64,000 bases of DNA from a virus, in IMG/VR virus record IMGVR_UViG_3300010939_000064, positions 1-64,000 of that record; one strand, given 5' to 3'. The notes beneath the pieces are model-generated. The model saw only the letters and a program-made list of their open reading frames with translations, did not search any database and had not been told where the DNA came from. A program made the translations under genes and the position numbers. Below, piece after piece: positions 7,639 through 49,378 of this stretch (the stretch's first letter is position 1; each line of letters opens with the position of its first letter).

Positions 7639-7732
7639 TAAATGACAGTTAACAAAAGTTGATGGGAGGTGAAACGATATAGAAAGAAAGAAAACAACGT
7701 TAATTAGTATAACGGCAATTGCAACTATCTTA

Positions 7733-45116: not shown

Positions 45117-45132
45117 TTCCTAGGTTTTTTGA
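45117..45132 (+). repeat. CTAGG element copy 2
   Basis: TTCCTAGGTTTTTTGA, identical to copy 1. Confidence 0.5.
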
Positions 45133-45145
45133 ATAAAGGTGATGA

Positions 45146-45153
45146 TTTATATA
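45146..45153 (+). promoter_or_regulatory. TATA box
   Basis: TTTATATA starts exactly 30 nt upstream of ATG 45176. The segment between box and start resembles the one at 44064-44096 (..CGTAA.GG..TTGATGAA). Confidence 0.5.
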
Positions 45154-45411: not shown

Positions 45412-45540
45412 ATGGTTATTATTTTATGTCCTAAGTGTTTAAGTAGTAACGTAAACTCAGATCCATCAGATGAAACTTATATAATATGTTTAAATGAGAA
45501 TTGTCCGAGACATAGGATATATAAAGAGGTTGAAGAATAA
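45412..45540 (+). CDS. Zn-ribbon mini-protein (42 aa)
   Basis: MVIILCPKCLSSNVNSDPSDETYIICLNENCPRHRIYKEVEE. Confidence 0.4.
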   Translation: MVIILCPKCLSSNVNSDPSDETYIICLNENCPRHRIYKEVEE

Positions 45541-45723
45541 ATGGAAGCAATAATTACAGAAAAAGAGTGTCCAAAGTGTAATGTAGGAGCTATGACATTT
45601 GTATTATGTAGAGTTAATGCATTTAATAGTAATTTAATTATGGAGATATCACTGTTTAGATGTGGTAATTGTGGATATACAGATGAAATAGTAAGTAATA
45701 GAGTTGGAAACTTGACACGTTAA
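45541..45723 (+). CDS. Zn-ribbon protein
   Basis: ECPKCNVGAM....FRCGNCGYTDE. Confidence 0.5.
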   Translation: MEAIITEKECPKCNVGAMTFVLCRVNAFNSNLIMEISLFRCGNCGYTDEIVSNRVGNLTR

Positions 45724-45739
45724 GTGGAGGTGAAAAATT

Positions 45740-45988
45740 ATAGGAAAGAAAAAGCATCCAGATTTATTAACATATTGGAAACCAGAATTTAATCTCGGAA
45801 TAGAATATTCAGTAGAAATATGGAACGAAGATATACCATGTGAAACATGTGCTAGTAAAGATATAATCGTAAAAGGGTCTTACATATTAAGAGACGATCA
45901 TAATAGTATGATTGGTGCATGTAGAAAACATATTAAAGGAAAGACAGTCTTGAAAGTAGTTGAATTGCCGTATATTCATAAATACTAA
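45740..45988 (+). CDS. Cys-rich hypothetical protein with apparent ATA start (absent from the ORF track)
   Basis: The frame is open for 82 codons from ATA 45740. GGAGGTGA (45726-45733) ends 6 nt upstream. The first canonical start is ATG at codon 57. Product: IGKKKHPDLLTYWKPEFNLGIEYSVEIWNEDIPCETCASKD...GACRKHIKG... Confidence 0.45.
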   Translation: MGKKKHPDLLTYWKPEFNLGIEYSVEIWNEDIPCETCASKDIIVKGSYILRDDHNSMIGACRKHIKGKTVLKVVELPYIHKY

Positions 45989-45990
45989 GG

Positions 45991-46007
45991 TTACTAGGAT
46001 TTTAGTG
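45991..46007 (+). repeat. CTAGG element copy 3 (diverged)
   Basis: TTACTAGGATTTTAGTG. Confidence 0.4.
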
Positions 46008-46048: not shown

Positions 46049-46333
46049 GTGGACATTAACAAAATTATCGAGAATTCGAAGTTGGTTGGTAAGACGGAAA
46101 TAGTAGAGAGTGATGTTTCTATGGAAATAATTAGAGTAGCAAAGTTAATATATGAAGAAAATAAAAATATGCATCCATGGTTTCGTGGTATTGATATGAT
46201 AGATAAATTAAAAGATTTAGGGAAATCAAGTGTAAGAAGTCATCTTGAAAAATTAGGTGATAAAGGCACGCTTGAGTCAAAGTTACATGGAACAAAAAAA
46301 GTATATAGATTAAGAGTGATAGAGGATGATTGA
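46049..46333 (+). CDS. winged-helix DNA-binding protein, paralog 2 of 4
   Basis: MDINKIIENSKLVGKTEIVESD..IIRVAKLIY......VRSHLEKLGDKGTLESKLHGTKKVY. GTG start. Confidence 0.5.
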   Translation: MDINKIIENSKLVGKTEIVESDVSMEIIRVAKLIYEENKNMHPWFRGIDMIDKLKDLGKSSVRSHLEKLGDKGTLESKLHGTKKVYRLRVIEDD

Positions 46334-48994: not shown

Positions 48995-49378
48995 ATGACA
49001 ACTGAAAATCATAAAGAAAGTATTAGAAAATGGCAAAAAACAGCAAGAGGTATAGCATCAAGGAAGAGAGCATATAATGTATATAGAATTCAACAAAGAG
49101 GAAGATTATTTAGTATATTAGGTGGTCATAAATGTGTAAAGTGTAATTTTGACGATTTTAGAGTTCTTCAATTTGATCACATCAATGGAGGTGGTAGAAT
49201 AGATATGAAAAGATTTGGTAATACACATGTGATGGTGTGTTATTATTTAAAACATCAAAAAGAAGCCAAAGAAAAATTACAAGTATTGTGTGCGAATTGT
49301 AATTGGATAAAAAGATGTGATAATAATGAACACAAACAAAATTATGCTAAGAAAGTACAAGGTGACATTTTTGCCTAG
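48995..49378 (+). CDS. HNH-like nuclease (single DH..GG / CxxCN domain)
   Basis: HKCVKCNFDDFRVLQFDHINGGG.....LQVLCANCNWIKR. Confidence 0.6.
   Translation: MTTENHKESIRKWQKTARGIASRKRAYNVYRIQQRGRLFSILGGHKCVKCNFDDFRVLQFDHINGGGRIDMKRFGNTHVMVCYYLKHQKEAKEKLQVLCANCNWIKRCDNNEHKQNYAKKVQGDIFA

Follow-up and report, generated by a model that had tools for sequence, protein, structure and literature searches.

The locus at 45724–45988 raises a simple question: is the frame that runs to the TAA at 45986–45988 a gene and, if it is, at which codon does its translation begin? The window, by which we mean the whole analyzed stretch of 64,000 nucleotides, corresponds to positions 1–64,000 of a complete IMG/VR virus record (65,398 bp, 105-bp terminal repeat, 31% G+C). 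A preliminary description had proposed that an ORF starts here at an ATA placed six bases after an extended Shine-Dalgarno (SD) motif, GGAGGTGA. All coordinates given for this site were recovered on the sequence. The frame is open from 45734 to the TAA, with ATT 45737 and ATA 45740 both in frame, and its first canonical start is indeed an ATG at codon 57, counted from the ATA; it lies at 45908 and would yield a product of 26 amino acids. The translation quoted at that time corresponds to residues 3–84 of our P0001. The features are collected in Table 1.

Table 1. Positions of the features discussed in the text (window coordinates).
Feature	Position	Strand	Remarks
Second GGAGGTGA-N6-ATA site	7665..7681	+	GGAGGTGA at 7665–7672, ATA 7679, first ATG 7733
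Secreted protein, 351 aa	7679..8734	+	Signal peptide encoded only with a start at ATA 7679
TTTATATA box	45146..45153	+	Lies 30 nt ahead of the operon's first start codon (45176)
Upstream zinc-ribbon mini-gene, 60 aa, other frame	45541..45723	+	TAA 45721–45723; stop 16 nt before the ATA; neighbor also in L003
Extended Shine-Dalgarno motif GGAGGTGA	45726..45733	+	Complementary to the 16S rRNA 3' end over 8 nt; one of two genome copies
TGA within the SD, closing the frame of the gene upstream	45731..45733	+	In frame
Alternative near-cognate start ATT	45737..45739	+	Spacing 6; the corresponding place of the other two sites has no ATT
Most likely start codon ATA	45740..45742	+	9 nt after GGAGG, 6 nt after GGAGGTGA; same spacing and codon at 7679 and L003:816
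CDS of the 82-aa Cys/His mini-protein (HPDLL-domain family)	45740..45988	+	Coding score, homologues, AF2 model; last cistron of a five-gene operon
Codons of the HPDLL family motif	45755..45769	+	Alignment A3: kept in 10/10 homologues reaching this far
TTACTAGGATTTT element after the stop codon	45991..46003	+	T-run; candidate transcription end (putative function)

Coding signal and conservation of the frame

The coding potential of the frame was scored with a three-periodic Markov model that was trained on the 57 longest ORFs. The stretch 45740–45985 reached +13.1, while the other five frames gave values between -15 and -43. For comparison, in-frame windows of real genes have a mean of 21.9 with a 5th percentile of 9.0, and off-frame windows have a mean of -42 with a 99th percentile of 12.8. 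The homology search that had been proposed for the 82-aa translation was also positive. An exhaustive HMMER search over 1.84 billion representatives furnished 12 homologues with lengths of 77–412 aa, and a word-indexed search gave two 73-aa proteins that share 84% identity with the 82-aa protein. The homologues are listed as P0002, P0003 and P0019–P0029.

More importantly, the alignment of these proteins (A3) contains the motif HPDLL(T/V)YW.PE in every homologue that extends that far, and the window encodes this motif upstream of every ATG, GTG and TTG of the frame. The start of translation must therefore lie between TGA 45731 and codon 45755. In this interval the frame reads AAA ATT ATA GGA AAG AAA AAG, and its only near-cognates are ATT 45737 and ATA 45740. 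Because homologues exist and the conserved HPDLL lies upstream of the canonical starts, the ORF is real and its start is one of these two codons. As judged from homologues and coding score, we have thus shown that 45740–45988 is a gene which is coding upstream of all canonical starts.

The closest homologues tell us something about how such genes are currently annotated. The three closest proteins, P0002, P0032 and P0003, start with M, M and L, respectively, and in each of them this residue falls on the second Leu of the motif. The gene calls thus begin at the motif's own Leu codon, showing that all three are truncated. The codon is a legal start in P0002, P0003 and P0032 and reads TTA in the window. 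All three are independent close homologues that were called without an upstream canonical start, and from these truncated calls we infer that the start is conserved among the closest homologues (84% identity). In P0020, a stand-alone homologue of 77 aa, a Met is found four residues before PDLL; the protein of the window, when read from the ATA, has five residues at this place.

Nine positions of the 82-aa protein are invariant in the family (P0001 numbering: P17, C36, C39, G48, Y50, C63, L78, P79 and H82). They suggest a CxxC...C...H zinc site, and the protein is probably zinc-binding. The AlphaFold (AF2) model (pLDDT 77, pTM 0.63) predicts a small fold that is rich in beta structure and contains two short helices. 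No fold match for this model was found in the PDB (Foldseek best E = 4.5, VIA-align best Z = 3.7), the family profile matched no solved structure among the PDB sequences, and Pfam and PHROG gave no domain in the 82-aa protein or in ten homologues. The family is uncharacterized.

Recurrence of GGAGGTGA-N6-ATA and the choice of start codon

The motif GGAGGTGA is present only twice in the whole 65,398-bp genome, at 7665 and at 45726, and both copies are followed by N6-ATA. This arrangement would be expected 0.03 times by chance, which bears out the earlier view that two occurrences make a coincidence less likely. The TGA inside the motif, which had been pointed out as the in-frame upstream stop, is truly in frame. 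This is, however, not an independent feature, because a spacer of six nucleotides puts it in frame automatically.

The second site was found as previously described. Here, the frame continues after the TGA with AAC GAT ATA, so that ATA 7679 is the sole near-cognate. All 13 homologues of the encoded secreted protein possess a signal peptide of 20–27 aa that ends in YA before an invariant ADEF (alignment A2), and the hydrophobic core of P0008 is identical, letter for letter, to that of the protein in the window. With a start at the first ATG 7733, nine residues would be left and the signal peptide would be lost. The related virus L002 (IMGVR_UViG_3300023443_001574) has GGAGG-N10-ATG at the position that is equivalent to ATA 7679.

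When the whole genome was searched for an SD with a non-canonical codon ahead of the first canonical start, no further convincing case came up, and hence the habit concerns about 2% of the genes (2 of about 116). The other SD-led non-canonical candidates in the genome are situated only one or two codons before a canonical start. What looked like a third SD+ATA site, 17914/17950, was rejected as internal to an ordinary gene with ATG 17866.

The same architecture was detected outside of this virus. The contig L003 (GenBank SDBT01162034.1) belongs to the K1060 assembly from Loki's Castle sediment (PMC6401483) and is syntenic with the window, with a zinc-ribbon gene, an HPDLL gene and a winged-helix gene; the latter shares 71% identity with window 46049–46333. 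At L003 802–818 we find GGAGGTGA (802–809), six bases and ATA 816; canonical starts and further near-cognates are absent. The HPDLL gene of L003 has been called from GTG 894, and the 22 residues upstream of this codon match the N-terminus of P0021 almost exactly. At the nucleotide level, GGAGGTGA-N6-ATA is conserved in this orthologue, the one homologue of the 82-aa gene whose DNA was compared, with motif, spacing and codon being identical. The SD-N6-ATA architecture hence recurs at a second gene and in the orthologue of another virus. In all, three sites share SD, spacing and codon; they belong to two unrelated genes and to two viruses, and ATA is the only near-cognate found in all three.

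Some further details of L003 should be recorded. Its orthologue (L003:802–1373) comprises 185 aa from ATA 816 and 159 aa from the called GTG 894, and its N-terminal region includes about 100 additional aa with no counterpart in the gene of the window. The TAA of the gene upstream (812–814) ends one nucleotide before ATA 816, which suggests translational coupling.

The proposal that the ORF starts at ATA after GGAGGTGA-N6 is thereby supported by the homologues, the second site, the L003 orthologue and the SD spacing. Indeed, the SD-to-start spacing of the canonical genes in this genome has its mode at 7–9, and ATA 45740 is located 9 nucleotides from GGAGG. We consider it probable that 45740–45988, a real gene of an uncharacterized viral family and the last cistron of its operon, is read from an ATA start behind an 8-nt SD.

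A real gene could also be initiated at ATT 45737, instead of or besides ATA 45740, giving 83 aa. The ATT is in frame 6 nt after GGAGG, an acceptable spacing that is used by 2 of the 26 SD-led canonical genes. AUU is moreover the best-known non-canonical start in bacteria, where it is found in E. coli infC and pcnB. S. aureus cvfC1 likewise starts at AUU (PMC13009471). The other two sites, however, carry GAT (7665) and AAG (L003:802) at this place, leaving ATA as the only near-cognate, and the genes with a GTGA-extended SD use a spacing of 8–9. The latter are canonical genes with ATG or TTG starts (34151, 23521 and 6408); by the same alignment, the ATA has a spacing of 9 and the ATT one of 6. 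Because site 7679 has the ATA alone, because L003 has the same GGAGGTGA-N6-ATA, and because the spacing is that of the GTGA-extended SDs, we infer that ATA rather than ATT is the start of the 82-aa gene. An initiation at ATT is accordingly unlikely, though it is the likeliest of the alternatives.

It is very improbable that the gene is dead or mis-sequenced, meaning that a mutation or an assembly error removed an ATG and that the ORF is now untranslated. The missing canonical start would fit such a loss, and the window is one metagenomic assembly. Yet the ORF is intact and scores as coding, and the strongest possible SD is retained at the exact spacing. In addition, the architecture is present at the second gene and in an independent assembly from another site, and three independent close homologues were likewise called without an upstream canonical start.

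We attach very little probability to the idea that translation enters from elsewhere, either by a +1 frameshift or fusion with the zinc-ribbon gene, by a start at GTG 45730 with a subsequent +1 shift, or by read-through of the TGA. This idea draws on P0023, in which a zinc ribbon is fused N-terminally with a CxxC...CxxC segment directly before HPDLL, on the GTG 45730 inside the motif, and on a TATAG that follows the SD at both sites of the window. However, the frame of 45541–45723 closes at 45721, while the target frame opens at 45734, after TGA 45731. The upstream frame thus closes ten bases before this TGA, leaving no overlap for a single shift, and fusion or frameshift is excluded. GTG 45730 overlaps the SD and is consequently without an SD of its own. 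Read-through is countered by a further in-frame stop upstream of TGA 45731, TGA 45713, and by the lack of a start between the two. The TATAG context is absent in L003. That only the short 26-aa product is made from ATG 45908, the sole canonical start in frame, is hardly credible, given that this ATG has no SD and that the homology and the invariant C36, C39 and G48 lie upstream of it.

Transcription, gene neighborhood and virus

The 82-aa gene closes an early operon of five mini-protein cistrons, and its neighbors in this early region encode zinc-ribbon and winged-helix proteins. The first start of the operon, 45176, has no SD, and the TTTATATA box in front of it is probably an archaeal-type promoter of a leaderless transcript. 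The same arrangement, with 29–32 nt from box to start, is present at 2221, 44094, 46049, 47069 and 48995. Altogether, 6 of 28 TTTATATA boxes have a start 29–32 nt downstream, compared to a background of 3.4% (P = 3e-4), and neither sigma-70-like sites nor hairpin terminators are enriched in the genome. A TATA box about 27–30 nt before starts that lack an SD is the typical look of archaeal leaderless transcription units (PMC7531240). From this leaderless TATA-box pattern it follows that the host of the virus is probably an archaeon.

At the other end of the operon, the CTAGG plus T-run element at 45991–46003 belongs to a set of intergenic repeats in the window, with further copies at 45117, 43610 and 48297. 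The orthologous gene in L003 is followed by CTAGGCAATTCG and then T8. Such an element would be consistent with an oligo-T transcription terminator.

The zinc-ribbon mini-proteins of the operon measure 42–60 aa and show the pattern CPKC...C..C; they are encoded at 45412–45723 of the window and at L003:662–814. The fusion in P0023 suggests that the zinc-ribbon and HPDLL neighbors may work together. The winged-helix gene begins with GTG in the window (46049–46333) and with ATG in L003 (1498–1782), with the same first residues at 71% identity. Both starts are without an SD and are located about 29–30 nt after a TATA box.

Two other genes came to our attention because of their open upstream frames. 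For the double-HNH gene on the minus strand of the window (50383–49703), the open frame extends 75 codons beyond the first ATG (50278) in the upstream direction without a canonical start, and similarity to the N-terminus of the paralogue at 48995 covers about 35 of them. ATT 50383 is found 30 nt after a TATATATATA box, and ATA 50377 adjoins. This gene may have a leaderless non-canonical start. The second gene encodes 1073 aa in the related virus G001 (L004, 3149–3370) and is open for 68 codons upstream of ATG 3370, which has its own AAGGAG. Where the preceding gene ends, there is an AGGAGGT with ATA 3166, which may represent a further ATA start or simply an open spacer. G001 has no GGAGGTGA-N6-ATA and no homologue of P0001.

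The source virus is tailed and stands far apart from all cultured viruses. Its terminase shares about 23% identity with Microcystis phages, and the sole full-length match of its polB is Halorubrum tailed virus 25, at 21% identity; against GenBank phages, both proteins reach only about 21–24%. No match among the GenBank phages, at the nucleotide or protein level, was obtained for the region, the 82-aa protein, the major capsid protein or the portal. Scanning IMG/VR with P0001, terL, A4 and A5 gave no matches, and neither did a first metagenome scan. Two scans of genome contigs were likewise without a match and hence without a pointer to the host. In the ESM Atlas, P0001 gave no usable match, while polB gave matches of mixed taxa.

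A possible initiation mechanism and its meaning

How could such a gene be initiated? In the mechanism that we propose, the eight-base helix between GGAGGTGA and the 3' end of the 16S rRNA would place ATA 45740 in the P site. This SD-antiSD helix would offset the third-position mismatch of the ATA with the initiator Met-tRNA, which would then accept the codon, so that the 82-aa protein would begin with Met. A phage-encoded tRNA able to read AUA as initiator was not found in the genome. The output from ATA 45740 would presumably be reduced, since bacterial AUA reaches roughly 1–30% of AUG, and the combination of a weak codon with a maximal SD could set a low expression, or one that is sensitive to an initiation-fidelity factor.

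SD-driven AUA initiation is already known. In S. aureus, infC, ccpN and citZ have AUA starts behind extended SDs, with 10–30% of the AUG output (PMC13009471), while AUA in E. coli gives 1–2% of AUG (10.1101/063800). The genes infC, ccpN and citZ (AUA) and cvfC1 (AUU) of S. aureus and B. subtilis resemble the present case in that a near-cognate start, a long SD-antiSD match and a fixed short spacing come together, with SD and start codon both being conserved across relatives (PMC13009471). In this set, cvfC1 too encodes a small putative zinc-finger protein. The present case differs in that the genes belong to an uncultivated, probably archaeal virus and have no link to the gene of the fidelity factor itself. 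In addition, initiation in S. aureus and B. subtilis was established by ribosome profiling and reporters, while here it is deduced from sequence. The AUU starts of E. coli infC and pcnB (PMC9723500) similarly join a weak start codon to an expression that depends on initiation fidelity, as may be the case here. They differ in that the codon is AUU and not AUA, the gene is cellular, autoregulation has been demonstrated and the discrimination is IF3-dependent. AUG, GUG and UUG are the only start codons listed in a review of archaeal translation (PMC7531240).

What is new is first the setting, a very divergent and probably archaeal virus, and second that the exact GGAGGTGA-N6-ATA module is conserved across orthologues with about 50% identity. 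Third, the public gene calls for the HPDLL family are demonstrated to be truncated. The finding adds a well-supported, conserved case of probable AUA initiation outside of cultured bacteria, and it has practical consequences. Gene calling with ATG, GTG and TTG misses the 82-aa gene entirely, and its closest public homologues are stored 9–11 residues short. At 7679 the secreted protein loses its signal peptide, and in L003, 26 codons are cut from the orthologue. With its fixed and simple form, the GGAGGTGA-N6-ATA module lends itself to a systematic search.

One may speculate that the virus and its relative from Loki's Castle infect an archaeon, possibly a Lokiarchaeion, whose ribosomes readily accept ATA and ATT, and that the virus mirrors the relaxed starts of its host. 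We put this forward as a doubtful but conceivable scenario. If it is true, near-cognate starts behind GGAGGTGA would be a signature that links Asgard viruses to their hosts. In that event, AUA initiation in an archaeal virus would also be described here for the first time.
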